From positions 1 through 57,307 of the forward strand of contig CAYIMB010000003.1 in the NCBI GenBank assembly GCA_964364425.1: a DNA stretch of 57,307 bases. The letters run 5' to 3'. Under the pieces are notes generated by a model. That model was not told the origin of the DNA and searched no databases. It saw nothing but the letters and a program-made list of their open reading frames with translations. Origin of the DNA: an uncultured Gammaproteobacteria bacterium. GTDB taxonomy: Bacteria > Patescibacteriota > Patescibacteriia > UBA9570 > JBBTWU01. The first letter of the stretch is position 1. Each line of letters opens with the position of its first letter. Positions 6,953 to 55,551 of the stretch are shown in pieces. A program made the position numbers and the translations under genes.

Positions 6953-7291
6953 TCACGGGGCGCCGGGCGCCTTGTGCCAGTTGATGAAGGCCTCCAGCTC
7001 GTCCGGGGCCTTGTTGTTGCCGGTCATCTGGTCGTGGATGACTTTGGACCAGTCGACCTGCTTGCCGCAGACGAGCAGGATGAAGGTGGCCGTGGCGGAG
7101 CCCAGGGTGGTGAAGTTCACCACCACCCGACCGGCGGGAAGCCAGACCGCTACCTCGCTGACGGCCTGGTCCTGGTCGTTGTAGATGGAGGGGTCTTCGC
7201 CGTGTTCGGCGGGGACCAGGGTGATGCGCGTGCCGCGGATGCGGAGCGCGAAGACGGGATCACGGGCGAGTAGAGACAGAAGCCTGGACAA
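6953..7291 (-). CDS. Hypothetical protein (GC-rich solo gene)
   Basis: High-GC3 codons, own promoter, AAGGGG RBS, TTG start, downstream hairpin. Confidence 0.65.
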   Translation of the reverse strand: MSRLLSLLARDPVFALRIRGTRITLVPAEHGEDPSIYNDQDQAVSEVAVWLPAGRVVVNFTTLGSATATFILLVCGKQVDWSKVIHDQMTGNNKAPDELEAFINWHKAPGAP

Positions 7292-12956: not shown

Positions 12957-13406
12957 ATGACTACAGTGACTCTGTCCCCCGTGATCCTGGAGCCGCCTTC
13001 CACGGGCTTCGTACGTGACAAGCGTTCCGAAGGTTGGGACCTGCTGCAAGCGGGCTGCCAGGTCGAGGGCGAATCCGTCCTGGAGCTGGCCGGATTCCTG
13101 CTCCTGGGTGAGGAATACGTTAACGGCCGGGTCATGCGTTACCGCTCCCTGGAGATGGGTGGCCGCACGGGCCAGCATCACGCCGAGCGTATGCTCGTCC
13201 AGGTTGAGGCCATCCCCACGGAGTGGCGCGAGTTCTACCTGGCGTTCCCAGACACCCTTTGGCGGCGCCCCGGCCGCTGCCTCTTTGTCCCGTGCCTGCG
13301 CTGGCGCGACGGCAGGTGGGTGCTTAACTTCCGCTGCGTCGTCCGCGACGCCCGCTGGAACGACGACCATCGGGTCGTCCGCGTCTGCAAGCAGCCTGGG
13401 TCCTAG
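12957..13406 (+). CDS. Hypothetical protein, DGR-target/C-type-lectin-like C-terminus (GC-rich solo gene)
   Basis: AAGGAGGT RBS; C-terminus VPCLRW...WVLNF...W.DDHRVVRV. Confidence 0.65.
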   Translation: MTTVTLSPVILEPPSTGFVRDKRSEGWDLLQAGCQVEGESVLELAGFLLLGEEYVNGRVMRYRSLEMGGRTGQHHAERMLVQVEAIPTEWREFYLAFPDTLWRRPGRCLFVPCLRWRDGRWVLNFRCVVRDARWNDDHRVVRVCKQPGS

Positions 13407-39678: not shown

Positions 39679-41661
39679 ATGAAAATTCGACTTTCACTGA
39701 TCAGTCTGGCCACAGGTTCGGCATTTGTCTTGTTGTTTGGCTTGGTCCAACCAAGTTGGGCTTCAGGTGATTATTACGTCAATGCCAATTCAGCTGATAA
39801 AAGTGATGATAACTCTTGTCGGTCAACATCAGCTCCGTGCGCCAGTCTGAACGGTGTGATAAGTAAAATTTTGGAATCGGCCACTCCCCAAAATTCAACC
39901 GTGTATGCTCAAGGGACATTCACGGAAAGCGTCTTAATTGGTGATACTGAATTGGAAGGTTTGACCCTCACTTGGATGAACAAAGGCACACGGCCAGTGG
40001 TGAATGCCGCAGGTGAACAAATGGTGATTATCATTTCTTTCGTAGATAATGTGAGCATTAAGCATTTTGATCTTCAGGGCAGTCAAAATTACGGTATCTA
40101 TGCCTATGGCAGTTCAGACACGCATATTCAGAATTTGACCATTCAAGACTGTATCATCCATGACCTGGATGCAGACACAACTGCACATTACGGAATTTTG
40201 ATCAATAGCGTAGATGATGCCCTCATTAAAGAGAATACAATTCACTCGATTGGAAGTACCAACACAAATGCAGATATATATGCTACTGCATATGCAATTT
40301 ACGTTCAACGCTCTGACCGACCACACGTGATTAATAACATGATTCGAGACTTCACTGTAGATGTTACTTTTACAGAAGAGAATAGCTACGTGTACCCCTT
40401 GGTGAGCGGGGTGTATGTGTATGAAGCGGATGGTGCACTGATCAAGAATAATGAAATTAAAGACATTGTTTCCAAAGCAACTCAATCGTACGCTTCTGGG
40501 TATCTGTATAGCTTTACCTACGGAATATTTCTGCAGAACTCACTTCATTCCACTATATCCAGGAATACCTTGCGCCGACCAAAGATTCGGGCTGTGTCTA
40601 ACGCAGATGGGACAACCCCGTATGCCTACTTATACGGTATATATGCAATCTTAACTGATGATACGGTGATCAGTCGGAATAAAATTTTGAACCCGTCGGT
40701 GAGTGCACAAGTCTTGGATGATGAAGGAAGCCAAGCATATTTTTATGGAATTTTTACCGACAGTATTGGTCAAGTGAACGTAACGCGGAATACCATTCGG
40801 GACGCTTCAGCTAAAGCTATAAATGGATCAGGTAGTCCTGTCCTGTATGGGTTATATATTAATGATGTTGAACAGCCTTACGTTGCCAACAACAGGTTAA
40901 TTGATCTGGAAACTTCTGCTGAGGGGACCGGCGGTGCCACTACCTATGCCATGAGAATCTCAGATTCCCCAATGACGGATATAGTGCATAACCGAATAGA
41001 AAATTTCACCGCAGCAGTTACTGCAGATGACGCAAATAATGATTCCTTGGGTATCTACATAGATTACAACTCCAGTGCAGACATCTTAAACAACCTGATC
41101 TATTTCACAGAGTCCGCTACCCAACACAATATTGACGGAATTGTAGTAGATTCAGCTCAGGCTGATCCAGTACGTATTTTTCACAATACCATGCTTAATA
41201 TGCGCACTTGTCTGCAAGTAGAGAATGGTGCGGTGCTGGAATTTGAAAACAATCTGTGCGCTTTGAGCACCAGCGGGGCTTACGGTGTACAGATAGATGG
41301 TGATGCCTATGATCTTGCCAGCGGGTTTATCAGTAATTACAACTTGTTTTACAACTCGGCTGAAGAAGTTCTCATGAATGACTTGGCTGTTGGTATTCTC
41401 AGTTGGTCTGATTGGAGGTCAGGTGAATACAAACAAGATAAGAAGAGTGTCAAACAAAATCCGCAACTCAACGTCAGCGATCCAACCAAGAAAGGATACT
41501 TACATCTCAAAGCGGACTCACCCGCTATGAATGCTGGTGACGCGGATGTTAATTTTGGAACTGATGCTGTTATGAACGGACTACTGGGCGCGGATTGGGA
41601 CAACCAAGTCAGACCTAAAGGCGCAACCTATGATATTGGTGCAGATGAATTTACCCTATGA
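39679..41661 (+). CDS. Secreted right-handed parallel beta-helix protein
   Basis: Signal peptide; repeated I.NN.I / YGI.. units; C-terminal SPAMNAG...YDIGADE. Confidence 0.8.
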   Translation: MKIRLSLISLATGSAFVLLFGLVQPSWASGDYYVNANSADKSDDNSCRSTSAPCASLNGVISKILESATPQNSTVYAQGTFTESVLIGDTELEGLTLTWMNKGTRPVVNAAGEQMVIIISFVDNVSIKHFDLQGSQNYGIYAYGSSDTHIQNLTIQDCIIHDLDADTTAHYGILINSVDDALIKENTIHSIGSTNTNADIYATAYAIYVQRSDRPHVINNMIRDFTVDVTFTEENSYVYPLVSGVYVYEADGALIKNNEIKDIVSKATQSYASGYLYSFTYGIFLQNSLHSTISRNTLRRPKIRAVSNADGTTPYAYLYGIYAILTDDTVISRNKILNPSVSAQVLDDEGSQAYFYGIFTDSIGQVNVTRNTIRDASAKAINGSGSPVLYGLYINDVEQPYVANNRLIDLETSAEGTGGATTYAMRISDSPMTDIVHNRIENFTAAVTADDANNDSLGIYIDYNSSADILNNLIYFTESATQHNIDGIVVDSAQADPVRIFHNTMLNMRTCLQVENGAVLEFENNLCALSTSGAYGVQIDGDAYDLASGFISNYNLFYNSAEEVLMNDLAVGILSWSDWRSGEYKQDKKSVKQNPQLNVSDPTKKGYLHLKADSPAMNAGDADVNFGTDAVMNGLLGADWDNQVRPKGATYDIGADEFTL

Positions 41662-42119
41662 AATGTCCCAGTTGTGGAAATGAAGACACTCGGGTGGTAG
41701 ATTCCCGCGCCTTAAGTGAAGGCATGGCCATCCGCCGCAGACGGGAATGTGAACAATGTGGTTTCAGGTTTTCCACGCACGAGGAAATCGAATTATTAAA
41801 CTTAAAAGTGAAGAAGCGGGATTCCGAAGAAGAATTGTACGACCGTTTGAAATTGGAACGGGGGATTAGTCGGGCTTTGGAGAAGCGTCCGGTGGATCCG
41901 GAAGTGACGAGTCAGTTGATCACGGCTGTTGAGAGAGATATTCAACTGAAGGCTAAGGGAGATTTGATTAGCTCTGAGGATATTGGTGAAATTGTTATGC
42001 GTCACCTGAAACGACTGGACAAAGTGGCGTTTATACGCTTTGCTTCCGTCTACAGACAGTTTGAAGACTTGGAAGAATTCAGGGAAGAATTGGATAAATT
42101 ATTGAAGAAAAAACGCTAA
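41658..42119 (+). CDS. nrdR: Transcriptional repressor NrdR
   Basis: MKCPSC, VVDSR, RRRREC..C, RFASVY. Confidence 0.96.
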   Translation: MKCPSCGNEDTRVVDSRALSEGMAIRRRRECEQCGFRFSTHEEIELLNLKVKKRDSEEELYDRLKLERGISRALEKRPVDPEVTSQLITAVERDIQLKAKGDLISSEDIGEIVMRHLKRLDKVAFIRFASVYRQFEDLEEFREELDKLLKKKR

Positions 42120-42685
42120 TGTATTGGAAGCCAGAACAAGCTGACATGCCTGACCAGAAGTCTTACGGGAAGGTGCATGTGTATACCGGGGAAGGGAAGG
42201 GAAAGACCACGGCCGCTTTAGGCTTGGCCTTGCGGGCTGTGGGTCATGGGAAGCGCGTGCTGATTGTTCAGTTTTTGCATGGCAATAAACAAGCTGGTGA
42301 GTTTTTAGCCCAGAACAGATTGGCTCCACATGTGGAGATTGTACAATTTGGAACACCAGAAGGAGCAAACGTTCTGAACCCTAGTGATATAGATTTGTAT
42401 ATTGCTCAGCAAGCCATGGAGTACATTCGTAAGGAAATGGTCAGGCGCCGGCCCGACATTCTGATTTTGGATGAAATTCTTCCGGCCATTCACTTTGGTC
42501 TGTTGGATGTAAAAGATGTAGTCGATTTTCTGGAGAACAAACATGCCCAGTTAGAAGTGGTGTTGACCGGACGTTACGCTCATCCGGAAATTTTAAACAG
42601 GGCGGATTTGATTACCGTAATGCAGTCCGTGAAATCCTACCTTACCGCAGAGGGCTTTGAGGGTCGTCAGGGGATAGAGCATTAA
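42119..42685 (+). CDS. cobO: Cob(I)alamin adenosyltransferase CobO/BtuR, copy 1
   Basis: YTGEGKGKTTAA, ILDE, VLTGR, GIEH. Confidence 0.9.
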   Translation: MYWKPEQADMPDQKSYGKVHVYTGEGKGKTTAALGLALRAVGHGKRVLIVQFLHGNKQAGEFLAQNRLAPHVEIVQFGTPEGANVLNPSDIDLYIAQQAMEYIRKEMVRRRPDILILDEILPAIHFGLLDVKDVVDFLENKHAQLEVVLTGRYAHPEILNRADLITVMQSVKSYLTAEGFEGRQGIEH

Positions 42686-42696
42686 ACTTTTGACCC

Positions 42697-43416
42697 GTGA
42701 CGCAATTTGACTACCAAGGCGTGCTAACGTCTAAAAAATACATTGCCCCGGATACGGTGGAGCTGAAAATTCGTCTTGTGCAGCCAACTGAAATACACTT
42801 TACAGCCGGTCAGTTTGTGAATATTCAAGCCGGAGATAAGTTGTTCCGTCCCTATTCCATTGCTTCTGCTCCAAGCCAAAAGAGTGAGTTACATTTTGCT
42901 ATTAAATTAGTGAAAGGCGGTAAAGCTTCCGCGGTATTTGAACACATTCAGGTGGGATCAAAGGTGAATGTCAAGGGTCCGTTTGGAAAGTTCGTGGTGA
43001 GTGATGAGGCGGACAGACCTGACCGGAGAAATCGATTTATATTTGTTGCTAGCGGGACGGGATTGGCACCTGTCTTGTCACAACTTAAAGCGTTATTTGA
43101 ACAAAAAAATCATTTACCTAAGACGTTATACTTTGGGTTTTATGACTCAGCTCGGTATTTATACCGTGAGATGTTGGAAACTTGGGAGAAGGAACATTTG
43201 GAGTTTAGAGTGGTGCCTGTGGTGTCTGACCAACCAGTGGACGTGCCGTGGGAGGGTGAACGGGGATTTGTGACTGCACTCTTGGAAAAAGATATTACGG
43301 ATGTGAACGGACTGGACGTATACGTCTGCGGGAATCCGTTAATGGTTCAGGCAGTGAAGCCGATTCTGTTGGTCAAAGGAGTTGATCCAAAACATGTGCA
43401 TGAAGAACGTTTCTAA
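42697..43416 (+). CDS. FAD/NAD(P)-binding oxidoreductase (FNR family)
   Basis: RPYSIAS, GPFG, ASGTGLAP, YVCG, C-terminal ERF. Confidence 0.9.
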   Translation: MTQFDYQGVLTSKKYIAPDTVELKIRLVQPTEIHFTAGQFVNIQAGDKLFRPYSIASAPSQKSELHFAIKLVKGGKASAVFEHIQVGSKVNVKGPFGKFVVSDEADRPDRRNRFIFVASGTGLAPVLSQLKALFEQKNHLPKTLYFGFYDSARYLYREMLETWEKEHLEFRVVPVVSDQPVDVPWEGERGFVTALLEKDITDVNGLDVYVCGNPLMVQAVKPILLVKGVDPKHVHEERF

Positions 43417-44557
43417 ATTACTATATTTTGATCATGCCGCAATTTCTCCCGTGCGGCCGGAAGTGTTGCAAGAACTGGAGCGGGTCAGCCAGGAAGCTTG
43501 GGGCAATCCCAGCTCCCTGCATGGTGTTGGCCGGACGGCCAAAGCAGTGTTGGATAACTCGCGGGAGGTGTTGACACACACCCTGTTTGGTGCCCGGCCT
43601 GGCCAAGTTATTTTTACCAGCGGGGGAACGGAAGGAAATAACTTGGTGCTCAGAGGTGTAGTTGAGGCCAAGGGGGTGAAAGGTGTGCATATTATTTCTC
43701 AACCTACAGAACACACCTCTGTGTTAGAGGTCTTGCGTGCGTTAGAACAAGAAGGCGCGGAGGTTACTTGGTTGCCGGTGGATGAATTTGGGTTGGTGAA
43801 TGTAGACGATTTGAAACGGGCGGTCCGTCCAAATACGGCCCTCATTTCCATCATGTCCGCCAATAATGAAATTGGAACAGTTCAGCCCATCAAGACACTA
43901 GCAGAAGCGGCCAAAGCCGACGCACCCACAGCAGTATTTCACACGGATGCTTGCCAAACGGCTGGCTGGCTAAATTTGAAAGACCTGGGTCCGTTAGATG
44001 CCATCACCATCACCGGTACAAAGTTCGGCGGACCTCGTGCCGGAGCCGTATGGGTGAGGCGCGGACTACGGCTGGAACCTCTTCAGTTGGGAGGTGGCCA
44101 AGAGTCCGGGTTGCGCAGTGGCACTGAGGCGGTGCCGGAGATTGCTGGATTAGCCAAAGCGGTAGAATTAGCCGGCCAAGAACGGGAAAATCGAACCAGA
44201 CAACTAATTATTTGGAGAGATCAACTGATCCGGGCCTTCTTGGAGTTGCCTCAGAGCAGACTCAACGGCCATGCTACCCAACGCCTCCCCCAAAACGTCC
44301 ACCTCAGTTTTGCCGGAGTTTCCGGGGAAACTCTCTTGGTCGCCTTGGACCAAGCCGGCCTAGCCGCCTCTACCGGATCAGCTTGCGCAGCCGGTTCTAT
44401 AGGGGAATCTCACGTTTTCAAGGCCATTGGATTGCCAAAACGGTACATCCGTGGCAGTCTAAGGCTCACTTTGGGTTGGTCAACCACTGAACAAGAGGTC
44501 AAGGCCGGACTGAAACTCATCCCCAAAGTCATTAAGGACTTACGTACAAAACCATGA
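43400..44557 (+). CDS. iscS: Cysteine desulfurase (IscS/NifS type)
   Basis: FTSGGTEGNN, NNEIG, HTDACQ, STGSAC; PLP lysine in variant TGTK motif. Confidence 0.88.
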   Translation: MKNVSKLLYFDHAAISPVRPEVLQELERVSQEAWGNPSSLHGVGRTAKAVLDNSREVLTHTLFGARPGQVIFTSGGTEGNNLVLRGVVEAKGVKGVHIISQPTEHTSVLEVLRALEQEGAEVTWLPVDEFGLVNVDDLKRAVRPNTALISIMSANNEIGTVQPIKTLAEAAKADAPTAVFHTDACQTAGWLNLKDLGPLDAITITGTKFGGPRAGAVWVRRGLRLEPLQLGGGQESGLRSGTEAVPEIAGLAKAVELAGQERENRTRQLIIWRDQLIRAFLELPQSRLNGHATQRLPQNVHLSFAGVSGETLLVALDQAGLAASTGSACAAGSIGESHVFKAIGLPKRYIRGSLRLTLGWSTTEQEVKAGLKLIPKVIKDLRTKP

Positions 44558-44880
44558 ATTTAGATAGTATTGCCGTGTGCCACGGTGGGCGCTGCTCACT
44601 CAAAGGCTCAGACCATATGAAACGGTCTATAGAGGATTTATGGCGCCATAAATATGCGGACAAATATCCTCAAGTGAAGATTGTGGCCACTGGCTGCAAC
44701 GGCGGCTGCGACCAGGGAATTATTGTGATTGTAAACGGAACGGTAGTGGGTAAACACGCGGACACCAAATTTATTGAAGCCTTGTTTGAAAATCCAGACG
44801 CCACGGTCACGGCCATTGTAGAAGCGGAAAGTAAAGACACAGCTACGCTTGAGCGGATTGTGGCCGGAGAATTATTCTGA
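44554..44880 (+). CDS. Thioredoxin-like [2Fe-2S] ferredoxin
   Basis: CX4C...CX3C. Confidence 0.75.
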   Translation: MNLDSIAVCHGGRCSLKGSDHMKRSIEDLWRHKYADKYPQVKIVATGCNGGCDQGIIVIVNGTVVGKHADTKFIEALFENPDATVTAIVEAESKDTATLERIVAGELF

Positions 44881-44961
44881 AATAAAATAACCCTAGTTTT
44901 AATTGAAGTCACCTGAGGCTTATGTTAAGCTTCGTCTGGATAAAAATCTAAAATTTTTAGA

Positions 44962-45576
44962 ATGGCTATGGATACAAAACTCCCATTTGATCCGGGAACA
45001 CTCACCGGAATCAGTGACAAGACCATCATGATTCACGCTGATAAGCTGTATCAGGGGTATGTCAAAAAGAAAAAAGAGATCCAAGATAAGTTAGCGGGAT
45101 TAAGTGCGGATGACCTGACTAGTGCCAATCAAAGCTTTAGCGCTTTACGTGCGTTGAAAGACGGCGAAACTTTCTCAGTCAATGGCGTCTACTTGCATGA
45201 GTTTTATTTTTCAGCCTTGGGTGGAGCTGGTGAGCCAACAGGTGCGCTGGTAGAAGAGATCAAAAAAGTCTACGGTTGGGATCAGTTTGTAGCTGCTTTT
45301 TCTGCTTGCGGCATGGCCGCCCGCGGTTGGGTGATTTTGGCGTGGGACACACGTGAAGGACGTCTACGGATCTATACTGCTGATGTGCACAACCAAGGCG
45401 GGGTCTGGGGTTGTATCCCACTCCTGGTTCTGGATGTGTATGAACACGCTTATTTTATTGATTATGGTGCTGACCGCAAAGCCTATATCACTGACTGGTG
45501 GAAAAACCTGAACTGGAGCGCGGCAGATGCTATCTATACCAAAGTTCAAGGCATGAAATTCGATTTACCCATGTAA
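44962..45576 (+). CDS. Fe/Mn superoxide dismutase family protein
   Basis: DVYEHAY; LHEFYF. Confidence 0.9.
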   Translation: MAMDTKLPFDPGTLTGISDKTIMIHADKLYQGYVKKKKEIQDKLAGLSADDLTSANQSFSALRALKDGETFSVNGVYLHEFYFSALGGAGEPTGALVEEIKKVYGWDQFVAAFSACGMAARGWVILAWDTREGRLRIYTADVHNQGGVWGCIPLLVLDVYEHAYFIDYGADRKAYITDWWKNLNWSAADAIYTKVQGMKFDLPM

Positions 45577-45593
45577 TTAATGATACTCAACAT

Positions 45594-46112
45594 ATGATCA
45601 AAGTAGGAAAACTAGCTCCGGAGTTCCGCGTGGAAGCTCTGGTGGGTACAGAGTTCAAAGACGTAGCTTTACGCGACTATAAAGGGAAATGGGTGGTGTT
45701 GTATTTCTACCCCCTGGATTTCACCTTCATCTGTCCAACTGAAATTACCGAGTTTAACGACCGGTATGAAGAGTTCACCAAGCTGAAGGCTGAGGTGTTG
45801 GGTTGTTCCACAGACTCCGTACACAGCCACAAAGCTTGGATGCAACAGTTAGGCGGACTGAAATACCCATTATTGTCAGATAATACGCATGAAGTCAGCC
45901 GGTCGTATGATGTGTTGATTGAAGAAAAGGGGATTGCTTTGCGTGGAGTGTTCATTATTGATTCAGATGGGATGCTGCGCTATGCCGCGGTGCATGATTT
46001 GTCGGTGGGTCGGAGCGTAGATGAGGTGTTACGAGTCTTGAACGGTCTTCAGTCCGGCCAACTCTGCCCAGTCGGCTGGAAACCGGGGCAGAAGACCTTG
46101 GGCCAGGCCTAA
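45594..46112 (+). CDS. ahpC: 2-Cys peroxiredoxin (AhpC/TSA)
   Basis: FYPLDFTFICPTE; LCPVGW; probable start ATG 45594. Confidence 0.92.
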   Translation: MIKVGKLAPEFRVEALVGTEFKDVALRDYKGKWVVLYFYPLDFTFICPTEITEFNDRYEEFTKLKAEVLGCSTDSVHSHKAWMQQLGGLKYPLLSDNTHEVSRSYDVLIEEKGIALRGVFIIDSDGMLRYAAVHDLSVGRSVDEVLRVLNGLQSGQLCPVGWKPGQKTLGQA

Positions 46113-46168
46113 AGTTCAAAAAGTTTTCCACACCAGGTAAATTTTGGCTAATCTGAGGCAATTTCGCA

Positions 46169-46217
46169 AAACAATATATTGTGTTATGATATTAGCCAAG
46201 TACACAACATATAGTAT
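46169..46217 (+). promoter_or_regulatory. Tandem NrdR boxes upstream of nrdJ
   Basis: AAACAATATATTGTGT and ACACAACATATAGTAT match acaCwAtATaTwGtgt; 33-bp period. Confidence 0.8.
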
Positions 46218-46238
46218 TAATTAACCAAATGGTCCCCT

Positions 46239-48626
46239 ATGACCAAACTCTCTGACCTGGCGCAAAAGGTCTTCTTTGACCGGTACGCGCTCAAAAACTC
46301 CGAAGGCAAGCGCGTAGAAGACACACCAGAAGAAATGTGGCACCGCGTGGCCAAATCCATTTCAACCGTTGAATCTACTCCAGATAAACAGGAACATTGG
46401 GAAAAGGAATTTTATTCCATTCTGGATGGGTTTAAGTTTGTGCCGGCTGGTCGTATTTTGACCGGTGCTGGTTCAGGTGTGCCGCTCACCTATTATAACT
46501 GTTTTGTTATCCCATCTCCGGAGGATTCTCGTGGTGGTATTTTTGACTCAGTCAAAATGATGGTAGAAATTATGGCTCGTGGCGGTGGCGTGGGTGTGAA
46601 CTTGTCTTCCTTGCGACCTCGCGGTACGTACGTCAAAGGCGTGAACGGTACAGCTTCTGGTTCTGTGTCTTTTGGTGGTCTGTATAGCTTTGCCACCGGT
46701 TTGGTGATTCAAGGTGGATCTCGCCGTGGAGCCCTCATGCTCATGTTGAATGATCATCACCCAGACGTGGAAGAATTCATTACCGTCAAACGGACCATGG
46801 GCTTGGTCACCAACGCTAACTTGTCTGTGTGTTTATCTGATGCCTTTATGGACGCGGTTAAAGCGGACGCTGATTGGGATCTGCATTACGGCGGAAAGGT
46901 GTATAAGACCATCAAAGCTAAAAGTTTGTGGAATCTGATTTCTGAATCTGCTTGGGCTTCTGGTGAGCCAGGACTTATGTTCATTGACCGTTATAACAAA
47001 CAATCCAACTCTTGGTACTTTGAGAAAATCATTGCTACCAACCCATGTGGTGAACAAGGTCTTCCAGCCTGGGGCGTATGTAACTTAGGCGCCATCAACT
47101 TAGGCAACTTCGTTCAAGATGAAAAAATTGCTTGGGATGACCTGCGCCGCACCGTACGTATCTCTATGCGTTTCTTGGACAACGTAGTGGATTCAACCTA
47201 TTACTTTTTTGATGAAAACAAGAAACAACAGAAATCCATTCGCCGCACTGGTTTAGGGACCATGGGTTTGGCCGACCTGTTGATCAAAATGAAAGTACGC
47301 TACGGTTCAGCCAGAGCGATTGAGATTTGTGACGAGGTATACCAGTTCGTTCGAGATGAAGGGTACCGCATGTCCATGGAGATTGCTCAGGAAAAAGGAC
47401 CGTTCCCTATGTTTGATAAAGAGAAATTTGCGCAAGGTGTGTTCATCAAACGCTTGCCAGAAGATCTGCAAAAATCGATCTACAAGCACGGTATCCGCAA
47501 TGGTGTTATTTTGACCCAAGCTCCCACCGGTACCACCTCTATCTTAGCCAACGCTTCTTCCGGAATTGAACCAGTGTATGATTTTGCCTTTAAACGCAAA
47601 GACCGGTTGGGTGAACATGTGGTGTACTACCCCATGTATAAGGATTGGTTAGATGCAAATCCAAATGCTGTGAAGCCAGACTACTTCACCACAGCTAAAG
47701 AGTTGACTCCAGAGGAACATGTCAACATGCAAGCCATCATCCAGAAGTACACTGACTCTTCCATCTCTAAGACGGTGAACGCTCCAGAAAGTCACACCAC
47801 AGAACAAGTACAAAGCCTGTACATGAAAGCGTATGATTTAGGCTGTAAAGGGATTGCCTATTTTCGGGATAACTCTCGTGATGTGTCGGTGTTGGAGTCT
47901 TTGGATAAAAAAGGAAAAGGGGAGGGAGAGAAAAGCGCAACACCGGTTGCGGCTCAAACTCAGCAACCGGTGTTGCGTCCACAACCAAAACCACGTCCAG
48001 AAGTGGTATACGGCGCAACGTACAAAGTGAAAACCGGATATGGAACGTTGTTTGTTACAGTCAACCATGATGAAGTTGGGCAACCGTTTGAAGTTTTTGC
48101 GACCATTGGCAAGGCCGGTGGATTCTTCCAAGCCAAATCTGAAGCTATCTGTCGTTTGATCTCCTTGGCTTTGCGATCCGGTTTAGATCCACGCACAGTG
48201 ATTGATCAAATCAAAGGTATCCGTGGGCCTATGCCAGCCTGGACCAGCAAAGGACAAATCCTTTCCATTCCTGATGCTATTGCACATGTCTTAGAGGAGC
48301 ACTTGCAAGGACCACAGTCTAAACTAGCCCTCAAGTTTGCGGAAGAAGCAAAGCTACAGGCTACTTCACAAGCTGACTTACTCAAAGAAGCCCACTTAGA
48401 ACCAGTGAAAGACATGACCGCTGGCCAAGAGGTTCCAAGCATGACCCAAGTCCAAGAAGCGCTAGTGGCCGGTGTGTCCGCAAAACCATCCGCCTCACTC
48501 AGTCGGTCTGGTGGATCCATAGCAGATCACGGCCTTGCCCCTGAATGTCCAGATTGTGGTGGTGTGTTGGCCTTACAAGAAGGTTGTCTCACTTGTCACG
48601 GTTGCGGATTCAGTAAGTGTACATAA
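46239..48626 (+). CDS. nrdJ: Class II (AdoCbl-dependent) ribonucleotide reductase with TSCPD domain and Zn ribbon
   Basis: NCFV, TNPCGEQ, CNLG, APTGT, SISKTVN; SIPD; C-terminal CxxC pairs. Confidence 0.93.
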   Translation: MTKLSDLAQKVFFDRYALKNSEGKRVEDTPEEMWHRVAKSISTVESTPDKQEHWEKEFYSILDGFKFVPAGRILTGAGSGVPLTYYNCFVIPSPEDSRGGIFDSVKMMVEIMARGGGVGVNLSSLRPRGTYVKGVNGTASGSVSFGGLYSFATGLVIQGGSRRGALMLMLNDHHPDVEEFITVKRTMGLVTNANLSVCLSDAFMDAVKADADWDLHYGGKVYKTIKAKSLWNLISESAWASGEPGLMFIDRYNKQSNSWYFEKIIATNPCGEQGLPAWGVCNLGAINLGNFVQDEKIAWDDLRRTVRISMRFLDNVVDSTYYFFDENKKQQKSIRRTGLGTMGLADLLIKMKVRYGSARAIEICDEVYQFVRDEGYRMSMEIAQEKGPFPMFDKEKFAQGVFIKRLPEDLQKSIYKHGIRNGVILTQAPTGTTSILANASSGIEPVYDFAFKRKDRLGEHVVYYPMYKDWLDANPNAVKPDYFTTAKELTPEEHVNMQAIIQKYTDSSISKTVNAPESHTTEQVQSLYMKAYDLGCKGIAYFRDNSRDVSVLESLDKKGKGEGEKSATPVAAQTQQPVLRPQPKPRPEVVYGATYKVKTGYGTLFVTVNHDEVGQPFEVFATIGKAGGFFQAKSEAICRLISLALRSGLDPRTVIDQIKGIRGPMPAWTSKGQILSIPDAIAHVLEEHLQGPQSKLALKFAEEAKLQATSQADLLKEAHLEPVKDMTAGQEVPSMTQVQEALVAGVSAKPSASLSRSGGSIADHGLAPECPDCGGVLALQEGCLTCHGCGFSKCT

Positions 48627-48652
48627 GCTAGAGAAAATCGAACTCAACAGGA

Positions 48653-48675
48653 AAGTGGGTGCAAAACGCCCACTT
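48653..48675 (+). terminator. Hairpin downstream of nrdJ
   Basis: AAGTGGGTG-CAAAA-CGCCCACTT (ends approximate). Confidence 0.45.
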
Positions 48676-48731
48676 ATCATGTTTGAAACAAATCTGTGGA
48701 CGGAAAGGGTTGGTGGGCGTAAACTGTCCTC

Positions 48732-49286
48732 ATGTGGGAGGAAGGTAAAATTCAAATTTATACCGGAGACGGCAAGGGCAAGACCACTGCCTCATTAGGT
48801 GCAGCCATTCGGGTGGCCGGTGCAGGGCTCAAGGCGGCCATTGTCTATTTTGATAAAGGTGGGAAGCATTACTCTGAGCGCAACATTTTAGATCAACTCA
48901 AGGCCAGTGGAGTTCCCATAGAATACGTGGCCACCGGAACTGACCGGATTAATCCGGAGACCGGGGTGTTTAGATTTGAAAATTTGCCAGAAGATGTGAC
49001 TGAAGCCAAGCGTGGTTTGGAAGTGGCTTTTAATTTTTTGCACCGCCAAGACCCGCCACGGCTGTTAGTCTTGGATGAAATTCTGAACGCCATTCGGGTG
49101 AAGTTACTCACGGTTGAAGATGTCTTGAGTTTGTTAGACCAAAAACCCAAATCTATGGAACTCATCCTCACCGGCCGAGAAATTCCTAAAAAAATCAAAG
49201 ACCACGCTGACTTGATCACAGAAATGAAGTTGCACAAACATTACTTTTACTCTGGGGTGAAGTCTCGGGAGGGGATTGAGTGGTGA
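48732..49286 (+). CDS. cobO: Cob(I)alamin adenosyltransferase CobO/BtuR, copy 2
   Basis: YTGDGKGKTTAS, VLDE, ILTGR, GIEW. Confidence 0.9.
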   Translation: MWEEGKIQIYTGDGKGKTTASLGAAIRVAGAGLKAAIVYFDKGGKHYSERNILDQLKASGVPIEYVATGTDRINPETGVFRFENLPEDVTEAKRGLEVAFNFLHRQDPPRLLVLDEILNAIRVKLLTVEDVLSLLDQKPKSMELILTGREIPKKIKDHADLITEMKLHKHYFYSGVKSREGIEW

Positions 49287-49768
49287 GCGGCAAGTCGATC
49301 TACACCGTACTGGATGACTTAGGCATTCGGTATACCGAGGTCAAACATCCCGCCCTGTTTACTAGTGCGGAGGGTGAGGCGTATTGGAAAGATATTCCGG
49401 GGATCAAAACCAAAAATTTGTTTTTGCGTAACCGCAAAGGGGATGTACATTATTTGGCCATTGTCCCGGTAGACAAGCGCGTTGATTTGAAACGGCTAGC
49501 CAAGGCACTTGGCGAGGTTCAACTCAGCTTTGCTTCGCCTGAGCGTTTACTCAAACATTTGGGACTCACGCCCGGTTCGGTTACGCCGTTTGGGTTGATG
49601 AATGATGCAGACCATTGCGTGCGGGTGTTACTAGACACGCAGGTTGCTCAAGCGGAAGAACAAGGATTTCATCCCAACATCAATACCGCTACTTTAAGCC
49701 TAAAAACAAAAGATCTGCACAAGTTTTTAGATTGGACCGGTTGTTCAGTCCAAATAATAGAACTGTAG
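49280..49768 (+). CDS. YbaK/ProX aminoacyl-tRNA editing protein
   Basis: KNLFL, LSFAS, PGSVTPFGL, FHPN.N. Confidence 0.88.
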   Translation: MVSGKSIYTVLDDLGIRYTEVKHPALFTSAEGEAYWKDIPGIKTKNLFLRNRKGDVHYLAIVPVDKRVDLKRLAKALGEVQLSFASPERLLKHLGLTPGSVTPFGLMNDADHCVRVLLDTQVAQAEEQGFHPNINTATLSLKTKDLHKFLDWTGCSVQIIEL

Positions 49769-49808
49769 ACCAGTTGTGCGGCTTTTAAGTTTGCGGTAAA
49801 CTACACTT

Positions 49809-51470
49809 ATGCGAAAGATTTTTTCATCTGTTGGAGTGATACTCATCACCTGCACGTTTGTGTCTCCGGTTGCGGCGGCTGGCAAGTATAACAGTTATGA
49901 CTATGAAAATAAGGTTCATAATTACCATTTGACCGAAACGGAAGTGTCATTTGATGGTTCGGTGGTGGTGGAAGTTTCAGATATTGATTCCAACACGCCA
50001 GACATTCTGACGGTGTTTACCCCAGATCAACAGAAGCCTGCCTGGACTTATGAGGACGCTGATCCAGAGGCTCCTATGTTTGATGTGGACATATCCAAAG
50101 ATAGTTCCACTATTGTGGTCTGTGGTGGAAAAATTTGGGTGTTTGACGTAGCTACGGAATCCCTGATCTGGGATTTAGAAGATGAAGCGAATGTGTGGGA
50201 TGCCTGTACCCTGTCAGAAGACGGGTCGGAGATTTACGTTGCAAACAGAGCTTCCAGCGTTGCTCACTTCACCCGCACCTCAAATGAGATTCAAGACTAC
50301 TGGACCATGGATGATGGTGGCTTTGTGACTGAGTTGAGTTTGTCGGAAGACGGAACGCATGTGTTAGCGGCGAATGACTATGCCTATACCTTGATAGACT
50401 TAACCAGTGGCGAGGTCATCTGGGAAGAGCCAAGTGATGATCAGATAGTGGGCGTTGGTTTGAATGAAGATGGTACCAAAGGGTTTATACTCACGGATGA
50501 ACATCTCGATTTTCTCAAGACCACATCCGGAAGTCCAGTCTGGAGCCGCTCCTTTGATCCAGACACCAACACCCCGCGAGCATCTATTTCTAACGACGGT
50601 TCACGTATAGTGTTGACCACGAATGATGAATACTTGGGGTTGAAGACGGCTAAGCATAGTGTTGCCTGGCGTTTTAAACGCAACGGCTCTGATACTACTT
50701 TAGGCATGTCTCAAAACGGAAAGTTTGCCGTGATCACGGAAGGGTTGGATTACATCTACTTGTTTGACTGGGATTTTAAGAAAAAACAACGGCCCATGCA
50801 TATTCGGACCGCTGTGTTTCCCCGCGGAGCTGGTTTGAGTGGTGACGGGTCGGCCCTGGCTTATACTCATGGGGATTTTCACTTTGAACAAATTCCCCCG
50901 GGTGTCTTGGTCACCAACCAGGATATTCCAGTCTATTCCGCCGGTATGAGTATGGACGTACAGTATTTTGTGTCTAACCCAGGAAAAAAAGCGGACTTGA
51001 AACTTAAAACGTCTTTAAGTTTGCCCCAGTTTTCTTTCCTGGATGATTTAGGCGCCTCTGTAGACGGAGAACCAGCGGGTGTAAAAATGAAACTGCTGGA
51101 ATACGCCAACAAAACCTTGCCTGGGTATGAGGTGGTAGATGAACAAGCTGTGACTTTGAAAGCACACACCTCAAAGGCTATAGAAACTTCCTTTACGGTT
51201 CCAGATATGATCACTCCGGATTGGTTAGGCGACCTATTGGACCTCCTAGGGTTGGACAACGTATTTGATGACTTGATGGGTGAGTTGGCGGCACCGTTAT
51301 CTGGCTTAGTGAATAGTGGTTTGTCAGATGCCATGACTGAACAAGCCAACTCAAGCAAAGCAGAAGGCGTTTTCCCACTCTTAGGTCTAGCCAAAATTCA
51401 ACTCTATGATCCGGACAATAATGAAGTGTATAGTCAGGATTCGTTTATGTTCTTGTATTTAGCTTATTAG
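49809..51470 (+). CDS. Secreted beta-propeller (PQQ/WD40-like) protein
   Basis: Signal peptide; repeated S.DG and W motifs. Confidence 0.75.
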   Translation: MRKIFSSVGVILITCTFVSPVAAAGKYNSYDYENKVHNYHLTETEVSFDGSVVVEVSDIDSNTPDILTVFTPDQQKPAWTYEDADPEAPMFDVDISKDSSTIVVCGGKIWVFDVATESLIWDLEDEANVWDACTLSEDGSEIYVANRASSVAHFTRTSNEIQDYWTMDDGGFVTELSLSEDGTHVLAANDYAYTLIDLTSGEVIWEEPSDDQIVGVGLNEDGTKGFILTDEHLDFLKTTSGSPVWSRSFDPDTNTPRASISNDGSRIVLTTNDEYLGLKTAKHSVAWRFKRNGSDTTLGMSQNGKFAVITEGLDYIYLFDWDFKKKQRPMHIRTAVFPRGAGLSGDGSALAYTHGDFHFEQIPPGVLVTNQDIPVYSAGMSMDVQYFVSNPGKKADLKLKTSLSLPQFSFLDDLGASVDGEPAGVKMKLLEYANKTLPGYEVVDEQAVTLKAHTSKAIETSFTVPDMITPDWLGDLLDLLGLDNVFDDLMGELAAPLSGLVNSGLSDAMTEQANSSKAEGVFPLLGLAKIQLYDPDNNEVYSQDSFMFLYLAY

Positions 51471-51472
51471 GT

Positions 51473-53035
51473 ATGCTGCATCAAATCGCAAAGGGGATAT
51501 ACGGGTTAGCTTTACTCTCCTTAGTAGGTTTGTTTGCGGTTCCGGTTGATGCCGCAGTATCAACCATTACCACTGAATTTTCTGGCTCGGGGGACGAGCT
51601 GGTGTATGCCGCACGGATACGCGGCAGCAGCACAGATCCAGGTGGAGAAATGGCCATTGCCTACCCCAGCGAGGATCAATAGACCATATTTGTAACTGCG
51701 TATGATTCGTTGGAAACTTGGAGCGAAGTTACTTCTATTGATAATGAACCAGTGAGCGGGGCTTCCCAGGTATCCATGCGGCAACTTGGGATTTTGCCAG
51801 TCCGGACATATTGGATTGTGCACTGGGTGACTGATCATTTTGCATCTGACGGCACATTCGTACGTTCTACGTATCATGTGTGGGAAGTCGAGAGGGACGG
51901 TTCTCTAAATGACAGTGGAGTAACCACGGGGACTTGGGATGAAGAGAAAATTAAGAGTCATGCTACTGAAGCGGGGGAAGCTGTATTAGAAATAATTCCT
52001 GTTTCGCAACCGGATTATAATGGATATATTGTCATGTGGAGGGATGAGAATAAGATATATGCTAACGATTGGTGGATAGATTGGTATGAAGGGGATACAA
52101 AATTTCAACTTGATCATGGTGATATAACCGCAGGTTTGTTTCGGCAATCTTACTCAATCATTCCTTATACAACATCTCAATACGGTTATGCTCGTATTCC
52201 GTTTTTTGTTGCCTCACAAAACGAAGGTCAACTCCGTTATTCAAAATTTTCAGAAGGAACGAATGAAGTGGAAGCTGATTTTACAAAGACTTGGAATTTA
52301 GAAAATGCAGAAGGAGAAATTCTTGCCCCTTTGTTAGGCAGTGGAAAGCAATCTCATATATTTTTTAAGGATGGTGATACATTAGAATGGAAACAATTTG
52401 CTTCAAATGGAGATAAGTTGGATCAAGAGACAATCGCAGCGATAGATGGCCTAAGTGCGGAACAAATGAACGCTGTGTACAACCCTTATGGGGACGGTCA
52501 ATTGGTTGTTTCCTGGATCACGGGAGAAGGAGAGGATGCTTCCATCTATTATCGGTATTGGACTCCAAACACAGGGTGGAATGATGTGACTCTACTGGAT
52601 CAAAATATTGCTACGGGTTTGAAACCTTTGGTTCAAGGGTTTAAAAATGGGCGACTGCAAATCAGCTGGAAAGACCAAACTAATGCCGTATATGAGGTAA
52701 CGTATACTCCTTCGACCAAGACTTGGAGTGAAGCGCAGCAGGTGTTTTCCAATTCTTCCAATGTGCAGATAAAAAAACTGGAAAATCGATCTCTGGTTTC
52801 TGGCTCAGGAAAAAAATCTCTGATGTACATTCAAAAAAAGAATCGGCGTTATGTGAGACGTTGGAATATGGGATTAGGTCACCAGTTTGAGGATTATGCC
52901 TTACCTGAAGGATTTAATTTGCTTGAGCACACTGTTGTGAAACGGAAGGATTTCACCCCCTGGTATTTTGCCCTGGTGAAAGATGGTAAAACTCTTAAAA
53001 GTGTGATAGCAGAGGAAAACAGTCTGTTTGAGTAG
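51473..53035 (+). pseudogene. Secreted propeller-like protein interrupted by one in-frame TAG (51680-51682)
   Basis: ORFs 51473..51682 and 51710..53035 share a frame; signal peptide is in the first part. Confidence 0.7.
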
Positions 53036-53097
53036 ATATTTTGGTGTGGACTTGCGGGGTTCAGTGTGAGTGCTAGTATGTCTGGGCACTTGAACAA

Positions 53098-53170
53098 GTT
53101 CGTTTGGGAGGCAATGAGGTGTGAATCCTCAACAGTGCCGCTACCGTAAAGTCGGAAAACTCCAACGGAC
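53098..53170 (+). ncRNA. Compact cobalamin riboswitch
   Basis: GGGAG..GAGGTGTGAATCCTC-AACAGTGCCGCTACCGTAA-AGTCGGAAAA resembles the Cbl core and B12 box; closing stem GTTCGTTTGGGAG/CTCCAACGGAC. Confidence 0.75.
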
Positions 53171-53354
53171 AACATCAACTCATCTCCCGAGCAGGAGAGT
53201 GGAGGTCATATACCAAGAAGCCAGAGCTGTCTTGGTTCGCAGATCGAATTGCCCCAGATTTGCCGACCCCATAGCTGTGGTTTTTTGATTTCTATCCTCC
53301 TGCTCGTGAGAGAGCCTGTTGTCCCTGTCCCTGAACCCTGTCCCGAGGTCTGTC

Positions 53355-53960
53355 ATGTTCCGTTTTCTGTTTTTGGACCTGCTTCGCCCCTTGCGCCTGT
53401 TCCGGGCGCGTCTCCTGGTTCCGGAGGCTCACGCCCCCAGCTGCACCCCGCGCCAGGACTTTTACGTCCAGGCCCAGGTCCAGCCGGACGGCCGCCCCAA
53501 AGACCCCACCCGCCGCGACTCCTTCCGGGCCACGCTGGGCGGCTTCCCGCTGGTGTTGTTCGCCCTGAGCGCGGCCGCTGCTTCCACGCCCGGCTGCGTT
53601 CCCGGCCAGTCCAGCAGCCTCGCCGTGACCGAGGTGGACTCCTTCACCGTGGGCCAGACCAGCCAGGACGGGATGACCTTGGAGCTGGCGCTGATGAAGC
53701 GCGCCGACTCTCTGGGCGTCCAGCTCCGTTGGCATGACTCCGTGGCGCCGGATGCCGTGGACTGCGAACAGTCTATTGGCGGCCCGCGCCTGGTCCGCTG
53801 GGACTACCGCGAGGGCTCGTCCACGGACGCGCGGCACTACCTGTTTGAGGTGTACCAGGAGGACGGCGAGCCAATTGGCAACGAGCCCCAGCTCACGACC
53901 GTGCTTCGCGCCGGCTACACCGTGGTGGTGCTGGAGGTCAGCTCCGCCTCGTCCGTCTGA
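53355..53960 (+). CDS. Putative exported/lipoprotein, transcobalamin-like (DUF4430-like) C-terminus (GC-rich)
   Basis: GAGGT RBS; TRRDSF, hydrophobic stretch and PGC; downstream of the Cbl riboswitch. Confidence 0.55.
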   Translation: MFRFLFLDLLRPLRLFRARLLVPEAHAPSCTPRQDFYVQAQVQPDGRPKDPTRRDSFRATLGGFPLVLFALSAAAASTPGCVPGQSSSLAVTEVDSFTVGQTSQDGMTLELALMKRADSLGVQLRWHDSVAPDAVDCEQSIGGPRLVRWDYREGSSTDARHYLFEVYQEDGEPIGNEPQLTTVLRAGYTVVVLEVSSASSV

Positions 53961-53976
53961 GCCTGCCCGGCTCGTC

Positions 53977-54030
53977 TGCACCTTCAACCCCTGCTTGCTC
54001 CGTACTATCCAAGTGAAGTACGGAGCAAGC
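53977..54030 (+). terminator. TGCACCTTCAAC motif plus 14-bp perfect hairpin
   Basis: GCTTGCTCCGTACT...AGTACGGAGCAAGC. Confidence 0.6.
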
Positions 54031-54073
54031 TTCCCCCCGCATCTATTTTTTTATGCTAGAATAGTTTTGCTCT

Positions 54074-54628
54074 ATGAATCAAAAAATACTTCGTCTGATT
54101 TTTGCCTTCCTACTCATTTCTATTGGAATTAGCGGTCGGTTATTTATAGATATTCCCAACGTAGAAACCGTCACGGCCGTGACTTTGTTGGCCGGCGTGC
54201 TGTTGGGCGGGTCTTACCTCTGGCTCATTCCACTCTTGGTAGTGGGTTTGTCAGATATGGTGATAGGCAATGACCTGATTTTACTCTATACCTGGACTGG
54301 TTGGGTGATGATTGGCTTGATGAGCAAATGGATTCCTAAAGCCAGCAAATCGATTTTCACCCAGACCGCCTACCTGACCGGTGCTGGTGTAGTCTCAACG
54401 TTTTTTTTCTTTTTGTGGAGTAACTTTGGCGTGTGGCATTTGTCTGGCATGTATCCACACACTGCTATGGGTTTAGTGGCCAGCTACGTGATGGGATTAC
54501 CCTTCTTGAAATTCCAAATCCTGGGCAACCTGATGTTGGTTCCAGCAGTTAGCGTAGTGGTGTTGGGTGTGATGAAAGCGGTGAACGCAGTCCAACCAGT
54601 TAAGCAAACTCAATTAGAACGAATATGA
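54074..54628 (+). CDS. ECF S-component-like transporter (DUF6580/BtuM-like), probable cobalamin uptake
   Basis: R...PN motif, SNFGVW, Y..GLPF; about 6 TM helices; B12 context. Confidence 0.7.
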   Translation: MNQKILRLIFAFLLISIGISGRLFIDIPNVETVTAVTLLAGVLLGGSYLWLIPLLVVGLSDMVIGNDLILLYTWTGWVMIGLMSKWIPKASKSIFTQTAYLTGAGVVSTFFFFLWSNFGVWHLSGMYPHTAMGLVASYVMGLPFLKFQILGNLMLVPAVSVVVLGVMKAVNAVQPVKQTQLERI

Positions 54629-55551
54629 TTCAACCTGGCAAGGTCGTAGTGATAGGAGCCGGATTTGTGGGTTCCACGGCGGCCTACGCCATGTTGATAG
54701 AAGGGGTGGCGAGGGAGATTGTTATTCTTGATATTCATAAAGAAAAGGCAGAGGGTGAGGCCTTGGACCTGGAACATGGCATGCAATTTGTACCCGGAGC
54801 CAAAATGAGTTTTGGTACGGATTACAAATTAGTCAAAGGAGCACAGATTGTAGTCATTACTGCCGGGGCAAACCAAAAGCCGGGGCAAAGCCGGAGAGAT
54901 TTGTTTGTGATCAACGCCAATATAGTGAAATCTATTGTGAAGAGTGTGGTGGCGGTGAATAAGGAATGTATTATTCTCATGGTAACCAATCCGGTTGACG
55001 CGTTGACCTATGTGGCGTGGAAGGCCAGCGGTTTGCCGCGTGAACGTGTGTTTGGAAGTGGTACCACTTTGGACACTGCTCGCTTACGGTTTTATTTGGG
55101 CGAAATGATGGGTGTTTACCCTCAAGGTATTCATGCCTATATGCTAGGAGAACATGGAGACAGTGAATTCCCCGGCTGGTCTGCGGCCAGCGTTGGGGGT
55201 GTGGATTTACAAAAATCCAAAGTCTGGAATACAGCCAAGATGGAACAGGCGGCGCTAAAAACTAAACGGGCAGCGTATGAAATTATTTCCCGCAAAGGCG
55301 CAACATACTACGCTATTGGGTTGGTGATTGCCCGTTTGGTCAGAGATATGCTAGATGATACGCGTTCTATTATGCCTTTGTCTATGGTACTAAAAGGTGA
55401 GTATGGGTTGAACGGAGTTTCCCTTGGCGTACCAGCTGTTTTAGGAGCTTCCGGTGCCCAGATCAAACAAGAACTTCCCCTAAATGCGGAGGAAAAAAAG
55501 AAACTCCGCATTTCCGCCAAGATTATTAAAGATCTCATTGACAAGCTCTAG
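54625..55551 (+). CDS. ldh: L-lactate dehydrogenase
   Basis: GAGFVG; GANQKPG (Gln specificity residue); LDTARL; GEHGDS. Confidence 0.92.
   Translation: MIQPGKVVVIGAGFVGSTAAYAMLIEGVAREIVILDIHKEKAEGEALDLEHGMQFVPGAKMSFGTDYKLVKGAQIVVITAGANQKPGQSRRDLFVINANIVKSIVKSVVAVNKECIILMVTNPVDALTYVAWKASGLPRERVFGSGTTLDTARLRFYLGEMMGVYPQGIHAYMLGEHGDSEFPGWSAASVGGVDLQKSKVWNTAKMEQAALKTKRAAYEIISRKGATYYAIGLVIARLVRDMLDDTRSIMPLSMVLKGEYGLNGVSLGVPAVLGASGAQIKQELPLNAEEKKKLRISAKIIKDLIDKL

Follow-up and report, generated by a model that had tools for sequence, protein, structure and literature searches.

A predicted vitamin B12 capture, import, activation and use site at the ribonucleotide-reductase locus of a patescibacterial genome

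Introduction

The DNA analysed here, hereafter the window, is the whole 57,307-nucleotide stretch of contig CAYIMB010000003.1 (assembly GCA_964364425.1), from the genome of an uncultured member of the Patescibacteriota (1.17 Mb, 99.8% complete, 47% GC). Between positions 41658 and 54628, where every listed gene lies on the + strand, it carries what we conclude is a real site of vitamin B12 capture, import, activation and use and a variant of a known design, the individual functions being predicted from sequence. We consider it probable that this is the conserved ribonucleotide-reductase site of the lineage, at which the membrane protein DUF6580 likely imports cobalamin, CobO-type enzymes are predicted to adenosylate it and the class II ribonucleotide reductase NrdJ uses it, with a riboswitch-led lipoprotein likely capturing B12. 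A preliminary description of the same DNA had proposed such an uptake, adenosylation and use route for dNTP synthesis, and the proposal is well supported by gene co-occurrence, synteny, the placement of the riboswitch and the lack of nrdB and nrdD matches; all the genes that it named, the tandem NrdR boxes and the AdoCbl-II riboswitch are present on the + strand according to profile, Rfam and sequence evidence. Its notion of a complete module is supported for the uptake, activation and use core but, beyond the window's family, not for the FNR-type flavin reductase, cysteine desulfurase, ferredoxin, superoxide dismutase (SOD) and peroxiredoxin. The features that carry the argument are the following:

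41658..42119, + strand: nrdR, repressor of ribonucleotide reductase genes (TIGR00244, 168 bits, above cut-off)
42119..42685, + strand: cobO1, CobA/CobO/BtuR-type adenosyltransferase (PF02572, E 1e-50)
46169-46184 and 46202-46217: tandem NrdR-box-like palindromes ahead of nrdJ (14/15 matches each, spaced 33 bp)
46239..48626, + strand: nrdJ, class II adenosylcobalamin-dependent ribonucleotide reductase with a C-terminal TSCPD domain (TIGR02504, 573 bits against a cut-off of 400)
48732..49286, + strand: cobO2, second adenosyltransferase (PF02572), of a different clade from cobO1
53071..53079, + strand: TGnTAGTAT, putative promoter box of the extended -10 type, ahead of the riboswitch
53098..53170, + strand: AdoCbl-II cobalamin riboswitch aptamer (RF01689, 40.7 bits against a gathering threshold of 36.5, full model length)
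53355..53960, + strand: GC-rich predicted lipoprotein, candidate B12 binder with a beta-grasp model (homolog family; 69% GC, GC at third codon positions, GC3, 0.88)
53993..54030: perfect 14-bp inverted repeat after the lipoprotein gene, possible terminator
54074..54628, + strand: DUF6580 membrane protein (PF20221), likely a solitary cobalamin S-component

Results

A conserved core around nrdJ

Family searches of the whole genome found neither nrdB nor nrdD, which leaves NrdJ as the sole ribonucleotide reductase found, and NrdJ enzymes require adenosylcobalamin. The best match of the window's NrdJ in the Protein Data Bank (PDB) is the B12-dependent reductase 1XJE/1XJK (E 2e-87). We compared the site with the surroundings of DUF6580 in 20 of the 25 DUF6580-positive genomes of the same order and with 40 wider loci chosen around cobO matches, where neighbouring genes were queried with proteins of the window and of contig C32 of this genome only. 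In the same-order loci nrdJ lies within ~1.5 kb upstream of DUF6580 in 20/20, cobO is present in 17/20 and nrdR in 16/20 (three misses being contig ends), and the genes run ftsZ, nrdR, cobO, nrdJ, DUF6580, DUF1858, HtrA with a single cobO in each. The usual order in the wider loci is ftsZ, nrdR, nrdJ, cobO, toroid, DUF4430, DUF6580, HtrA, with nrdJ in 39, DUF6580 in 23, DUF4430 in 19 and the toroid gene in 7 of the 40. The set of nrdR, cobO, nrdJ and DUF6580 is the conserved core of the lineage's ribonucleotide-reductase site, and the core order in both samples marks the window as an ancestral core split by two insertions.

The control of nrdJ is conserved as well. At least one NrdR box precedes nrdJ in 17/18 same-order loci, and a tandem pair does so in 12; scored against what we take to be the NrdR-box consensus, 15 sites in the whole genome match at 13/15 or better, and those before nrdJ are the only pair among them. 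Two variants of the gene itself were seen: the nrdJ of two same-order loci (L070 and L071) has a ~1.1 kb interruption near residue 270, possibly an intein or intron, and in several class genomes, among them those of loci L109, L123 and L126, NrdJ-like barrel domains occur three in tandem, within a single long open reading frame (ORF) or two of them.

Across 301 genomes of the class, whose kinship makes such tallies overstate their independence, nrdJ was found in 161, cobO in 137 and DUF6580 in 134. nrdJ and DUF6580 occur together in 116 genomes, nrdJ only in 45, DUF6580 only in 18 and neither in 122, which places DUF6580 in 116/161 genomes with nrdJ versus 18/140 without it. The corresponding counts for nrdJ and cobO are 123, 38, 14 and 126, and all three genes are found together in 91/301. 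Profiling against nrdJ, suggested in the preliminary description and run here on the class and the loci, therefore links DUF6580 and cobO to the reductase, but not the flavin reductase or ferredoxin beyond the window's family. Nor is the combination rare: about 4 in 10 class genomes have nrdJ and DUF6580 together. Whole-genome family searches gave no EcfT (PF02361), BtuF-type binding protein, PduO or flavodoxin, and a B12-binding-domain search returned one sub-threshold match, on contig C14. Our literature search, with subscription journals mostly outside its reach, found nothing on DUF6580, on cobalamin riboswitches of Patescibacteria or on class II ribonucleotide reductase together with B12 in the candidate phyla radiation (CPR).

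A riboswitch-led lipoprotein in the DUF4430 slot

The AdoCbl-II aptamer is the only Rfam element in the whole window and stands 185 bases ahead of the lipoprotein ORF. Its region (53085-53237) shows at most 3 differences in a related organism versus 23 listed in the next 117 bases, and the upstream TGnTAGTAT box recurs with identical letters at the loose end of a related strain's contig. Matches to RF01689 occur in 16/151 class genomes (4 above cut-off) and mostly precede DUF4430, toroid or DUF6580 genes; three precede B12-independent reductase genes. These last are AdoCbl-II-like matches ahead of nrdB, nrdD and nrdA-like genes (L021 1615-2964, L024 1678-3081 and L030 1-1397 on the - strand, the L030 match being below cut-off), an arrangement that suggests B12-controlled switching between isozymes.

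The lipoprotein gene has 69% GC among neighbours of 43-53% and belongs to a tiny family of 11 sequences (the window's and 10 homologs, one with a tandem domain duplication). Its N terminus has a twin-arginine motif, a hydrophobic stretch and a Gly-Cys pair, the first and last invariant in 9/9 aligned sequences, and the genome encodes Lgt and LspA for lipoprotein processing, from which we predict surface anchoring. An AlphaFold model of the mature part of the 201-residue protein, built from 10 sequences, reached a pLDDT of 73. Submitted to Foldseek, it retrieved transcobalamin at ranks 1, 2, 3, 6, 11, 14 and 18 (best E 0.05), and VIA-align against 48,161 chains placed bovine transcobalamin (Z 5.7, rmsd 3.3, 86 aligned), the human transcobalamin beta domain (Z 5.7), haptocorrin (Z 5.5) and intrinsic factor (Z 5.0) among the five chains with Z of at least 5, both searches using one and the same model. 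The modelled fold thus lends structural support to the B12-binding lipoprotein of the preliminary description, with modest Z scores of 5.0-5.7, but the sequence match to DUF4430 is not significant. We found no Pfam family for the window lipoprotein and no DUF4430 (PF14478) match for it or for 6 homologs; there was likewise no ESM Atlas match at 0.8 or above and no PDB sequence match.

Gene context is the stronger support for a parallel with DUF4430. Of the 23 wider loci with DUF6580, 17 have a DUF4430 gene immediately upstream of it, and a cobalamin riboswitch precedes DUF4430 in 6 of 7 wider loci picked for scanning, so the lipoprotein, standing between riboswitch and DUF6580, occupies the DUF4430 slot. 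Moreover, 7/10 lipoprotein homologs lie on contigs equal in length to that of a close DUF6580 homolog, an indirect sign of linkage; in four such pairs DUF6580 is 90-95% identical to the window's and the lipoprotein domain 46-72%. In a related organism from another study, riboswitch and lipoprotein share one contig and lipoprotein and DUF6580 another. On the model and this context the lipoprotein likely captures B12 at the cell surface, and we regard it as a candidate binder.

DUF4430 is the transcobalamin C-terminal domain (PMC4350170, in the text available), and transcobalamin-like SLBB surface proteins have been predicted to scavenge B12 (PMC1796856, likewise in part). Like these, the window lipoprotein would be a secreted beta-grasp protein with transcobalamin beta domains as its top structural matches and the same gene slot. 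Unlike them, it has no significant sequence match, longer loops, a lipid anchor and a long N-terminal extension, and it is neither fused to nor beside a toroid; the SLBB operons in the available part of PMC1796856 carry CbiO/CbiQ, whereas this genome does not. The new element here is a substituted, fast-diverging candidate binder. Contig C32 (L094 1961-4091, - strand) encodes a canonical DUF4430 protein and, after it, one that joins DUF4430 to an alpha/alpha-toroid, by their domains a split transcobalamin-like pair, with no riboswitch match at the pair. Elsewhere, toroid genes are preceded by other small secreted proteins that follow a riboswitch and lack a Pfam match (L022 990-1409, - strand; L025 1714-2127; L029 928-1323, - strand; L032 1721-2221), and these may be more divergent DUF4430 substitutes.

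A doubtful alternative treats the lipoprotein as an unrelated, GC-rich orphan whose gene ended up between the riboswitch and DUF6580; its ligand would then be another one, or there would be none. On this view its ORF is one among the GC-rich ORFs, up to 67 in number and mostly unknown, that dot a 47% GC genome; it lacks a Pfam family and a significant DUF4430 match, a canonical DUF4430 and toroid pair is already encoded on C32, and a search of 400 other phylum genomes did not find the protein. However, both fold searches, on their shared model, ranked B12 carriers first without a prior hint, and the gene sits in the DUF4430 slot, with its core motifs in 10/10 homologs and 7/10 of these apparently DUF6580-linked. 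A chimeric assembly was ruled out, as contigs of other runs bridge the junctions of the GC-rich segment, and we could not demonstrate transfer from a distant phylum of high GC, as the homologs appear tied to DUF6580. The homolog search also returned two long repeat proteins (P0011 and P0012), which we discarded as unrelated. Neither the genome-contig collection nor JGI metagenomes yielded a lipoprotein locus.

GC-rich ORFs are a feature of the genome at large: 67 of at least 110 residues with GC of at least 60% and GC3 of at least 0.78 cover ~46 kb (some being shadow frames) and are scattered singly, those in the window lying at 730-1545 (-), 6953-7291 (-), 12957-13406 (+) and 53355-53960 (+). 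On visual inspection, many of them encode small proteins that are unknown or lipoprotein-like, and several resemble paralogs; accessory genes richer in GC than the core were unexpected.

DUF6580 as a likely cobalamin S-component

The window's DUF6580 protein has 184 residues, and those of its homologs that carry a taxon name, 44-52% identical to it, belong to Candidatus Kerfeldbacteria and Patescibacteria, in keeping with a CPR organism. Its sole PDB match below E 0.1 is the S-component CbrT (6FNP; E 0.004 as a single sequence and 0.0003 as a 15-sequence profile), a weak match that covers the N-terminal half. The S-component-like transporter of the preliminary description thus gains a likeness to CbrT, but the cysteine that defines BtuM is absent: the protein contains no Cys and 15 aligned copies share no conserved cysteine column. 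CbrT, according to the available text of PMC5997447, has been proven to be an S-component for B12, and its gene is part of the Lactobacillus delbrueckii cluster nrdJ-cbrS-cbrT-pduO. Much as in that cluster, genes for a class II reductase, an adenosyltransferase, a predicted surface protein and a likely S-component meet at one locus in the window; here, by contrast, the adenosyltransferase is of the CobO rather than the PduO type and present in two copies, a riboswitch and a new lipoprotein family are added, EcfT is absent and DUF6580 is only distantly similar to CbrT. With BtuM of Thiobacillus denitrificans the site shares an S-component-like protein in a genome that has no ECF module, whereas BtuM has an invariant functional cysteine and is not matched by DUF6580 sequence searches. 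From these likenesses DUF6580 likely works like CbrT or BtuM, yet it belongs to neither.

It is unlikely, in our estimate, that DUF6580 is a mere membrane-bound B12 receptor or modifier in need of another energising partner or of direct host contact. Such a role would fit the lack of EcfT, which was not found here and occurs in 2/301 class genomes, neither of them with DUF6580, as well as the missing cysteine and the failure of solitary CbrT to transport (PMC5997447, available text). Against it, solitary BtuM and BioY both transport, as stated in the accessible part of PMC6072759, and only DUF4430, the toroid protein and HtrA are consistently linked to DUF6580 among the window and C32 proteins used as queries. 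Downstream, an L-lactate dehydrogenase gene (54625-55551) overlaps the DUF6580 stop; it is absent from 20/20 same-order loci.

Two adenosyltransferases of different clades

The two CobO proteins are 39% identical to each other, and both match Salmonella CobA (1G5R, 4HUT) at E ~1e-21 and share with it the PF02572 domain and a GxGKGKT P-loop. They differ from it in falling under the TIGR00708 cut-off, and cobO1 with 18 same-order copies has no aromatic residue at the positions of Phe91 and Trp93, residues to which we presume a role in CobA; in the cobO2 clade the loop differs and contains two Phe. In a 59-row tree cobO1, the copy native to the order, groups with 17 same-order copies (support 95/86), and cobO2 joins 12 copies of other orders in a clade of 13 rows (100/100), nearest to the cobO of L109, which has FNR and IscS genes alongside. 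A genome scan with cobO2 returned 21 loci at 36-53% identity, with one short piece at 69%. The tree suggests that cobO2 was likely acquired sideways, and the missing CobA-type aromatics of cobO1 are a possible reason for a second copy. In cobO1 (42119-42685) the QFxK motif also has a His where most copies have Lys.

The redox block is a local addition

Five genes with redox or antioxidant assignments separate cobO1 from nrdJ:

42697..43416, + strand: FNR/Fre-like FAD/NAD(P) reductase (PF00970 and PF00175), possible corrinoid reductant
43382..44557, + strand: NifS/IscS-like cysteine desulfurase (family match; the real start may lie a few codons downstream)
44554..44880, + strand: thioredoxin-like [2Fe-2S] ferredoxin (PF01257, E 5e-6)
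44962..45576, + strand: Fe/Mn superoxide dismutase (family match)
45594..46112, + strand: AhpC/TSA peroxiredoxin (family match)

The preliminary description had counted them as module members, an assignment that fails beyond the window's family. The 20 same-order loci contain no FNR, IscS, ferredoxin, SOD or peroxiredoxin gene, nor the ProX gene, secreted genes, lipoprotein or lactate dehydrogenase of the window, and the 40 wider loci have FNR in 1, IscS in 3, peroxiredoxin in 3 and ferredoxin and SOD in 0. The block is a local addition and likely no core part of the B12 system, SOD and peroxiredoxin being general oxidative-stress genes. For FNR, 20/40 relatives have matches of only 25-31%, and 12 full-length homologs stand at 63-85%, of which 3 lie on contigs equal in length to those of DUF6580 homologs; this pattern makes FNR likely a family-level addition, and a metagenome scan with it found no loci. 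Orthologs of the ferredoxin occur in 12/12 genomes of sister family f3, on other contigs or 62-94 kb from nrdJ and, in 5/5 checked, with no IscS or FNR within 1.5 kb; none was found in 13/13 genomes of family f4, which keep the core.

That all five are nevertheless dedicated members, with FNR and ferredoxin reducing cob(II)alamin for CobO, strikes us as improbable. Points in its favour are the gaps along nrdR, cobO1, FNR, IscS and ferredoxin (-1, +11, -35 and -4), overlapping or nearly touching genes that likely form one transcript, the lack of a flavodoxin match in the genome, the retention of FNR in 12 relatives, the FNR and IscS beside the L109 cobO, and the flavin and flavodoxin routes of corrin reduction described in the available part of PMC2982820. 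The locus counts and the distribution of the ferredoxin speak against it, as does the start of the gene run behind an unrelated beta-helix gene at a gap of -4, tight spacing being common here. The close spacing behind cobO1 and the missing flavodoxin leave a local reductant role possible, not a conserved trait.

Genes of the second insertion

The preliminary inventory named the listed genes but omitted three, which put 3.8 kb between cobO2 and the riboswitch:

49280-49768, + strand: ProX/YbaK-like gene
49809-51470, + strand: secreted beta-propeller
51473-53035, + strand: secreted gene with an in-frame TAG

The full order in the span is therefore nrdR, cobO1, FNR-like reductase, IscS-like desulfurase, ferredoxin, SOD, peroxiredoxin, nrdJ, cobO2, ProX/YbaK-like gene, two secreted proteins, riboswitch, GC-rich lipoprotein ORF and DUF6580. 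The TAG of the second secreted gene, at 51680, reads CAG in two runs of another study, which identifies it as a recent strain-level nonsense change.

Discussion

We propose that low B12 would permit lipoprotein synthesis through the riboswitch, that the transcobalamin-beta-like domain of the lipoprotein would bind cobalamin, perhaps with the alpha/alpha-toroid protein of C32, and that it would hand the cofactor to DUF6580. The latter would carry cobalamin across the membrane without an ECF motor, trapping by adenosylation providing the driving force, and CobO would supply adenosylcobalamin to NrdJ, with NrdR regulating nrdJ separately from the riboswitch. FNR, IscS and ferredoxin would have been inserted behind cobO1 in the window's family, where FNR may act as a cobalt reductant; most relatives keep the core without FNR at the locus.

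Several observations weigh against this proposal. The transport step is the most exposed: DUF6580 has neither BtuM's essential cysteine nor an ECF partner; CbrT without its ECF module gave no B12 uptake in E. coli (PMC5997447, available text), and BtuM, which transports alone, depends on its invariant cysteine (PMC6072759, available part); a single-sequence model of DUF6580 (pLDDT 58, pTM 0.29) gave no usable fold. For the lipoprotein, the fold match to the transcobalamin family is modest, as an unrelated mitoribosome factor scores Z 5.1 and other beta-grasp proteins 4.1-4.6, all hits lying under Z 8. Full-length profile comparison with DUF4430-like proteins gave no match and a poor alignment, and a local 50-sequence DUF4430 profile gave E 2.3 (HHalign probability 3.6%, P 0.012), a likeness that is colinear over 59 columns but weak, its score being reached by 1/100 column shuffles. 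TatC was not found in the genome despite the twin-arginine motif. As to control, DUF6580 may have a promoter of its own and be uncoupled from the riboswitch, as a hairpin follows the lipoprotein gene and is itself followed by a TGnTAGAAT box 11 bases ahead of the DUF6580 start, and no riboswitch was found at the locus in same-order sister families (0/19 short and 0/7 long loci). Finally, relatedness among the genomes inflates the independence of the co-occurrence tallies, and the nrdJ threshold (E<=1e-130) was picked after the score gap had been seen: at E<=1e-90 the nrdJ and DUF6580 table becomes 118, 84, 16 and 83. The 36 genomes with nrdJ scores of 1e-100 to 1e-129 probably hold class I or partial genes, and 1 of them has DUF6580.

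A bolder extension, which we would not expect to prove correct in full, is that the window's family replaced its DUF4430 binder with a new, fast-diverging lipoprotein of the transcobalamin-beta-like kind, which takes corrinoids off the host surface or out of the medium for a cysteine-free, ATPase-free S-component, that the divergence of this lipoprotein (46-72% against 90-95% for the transporter) tracks hosts or cobamides, and that, with no flavodoxin in the cell, the inserted FNR fills the gap as cobalt reductant.

The overall design is already known from lactobacilli, in the nrdJ-cbrS-cbrT-pduO cluster, which limits the surprise. For the biology of this lineage, the locus points to strict B12 dependence in a 1.17-Mb genome in which no other ribonucleotide reductase was found and offers a concrete route by which such cells may acquire the cofactor, be it from hosts or from groundwater. 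The lipoprotein adds a new family of candidate B12-binding proteins, and DUF6580, which 134/301 class genomes have without an ECF motor, gains a testable function and a place as a test case for solitary S-component transport without BtuM's cysteine. B12 supply could, finally, matter for cultivating these organisms.

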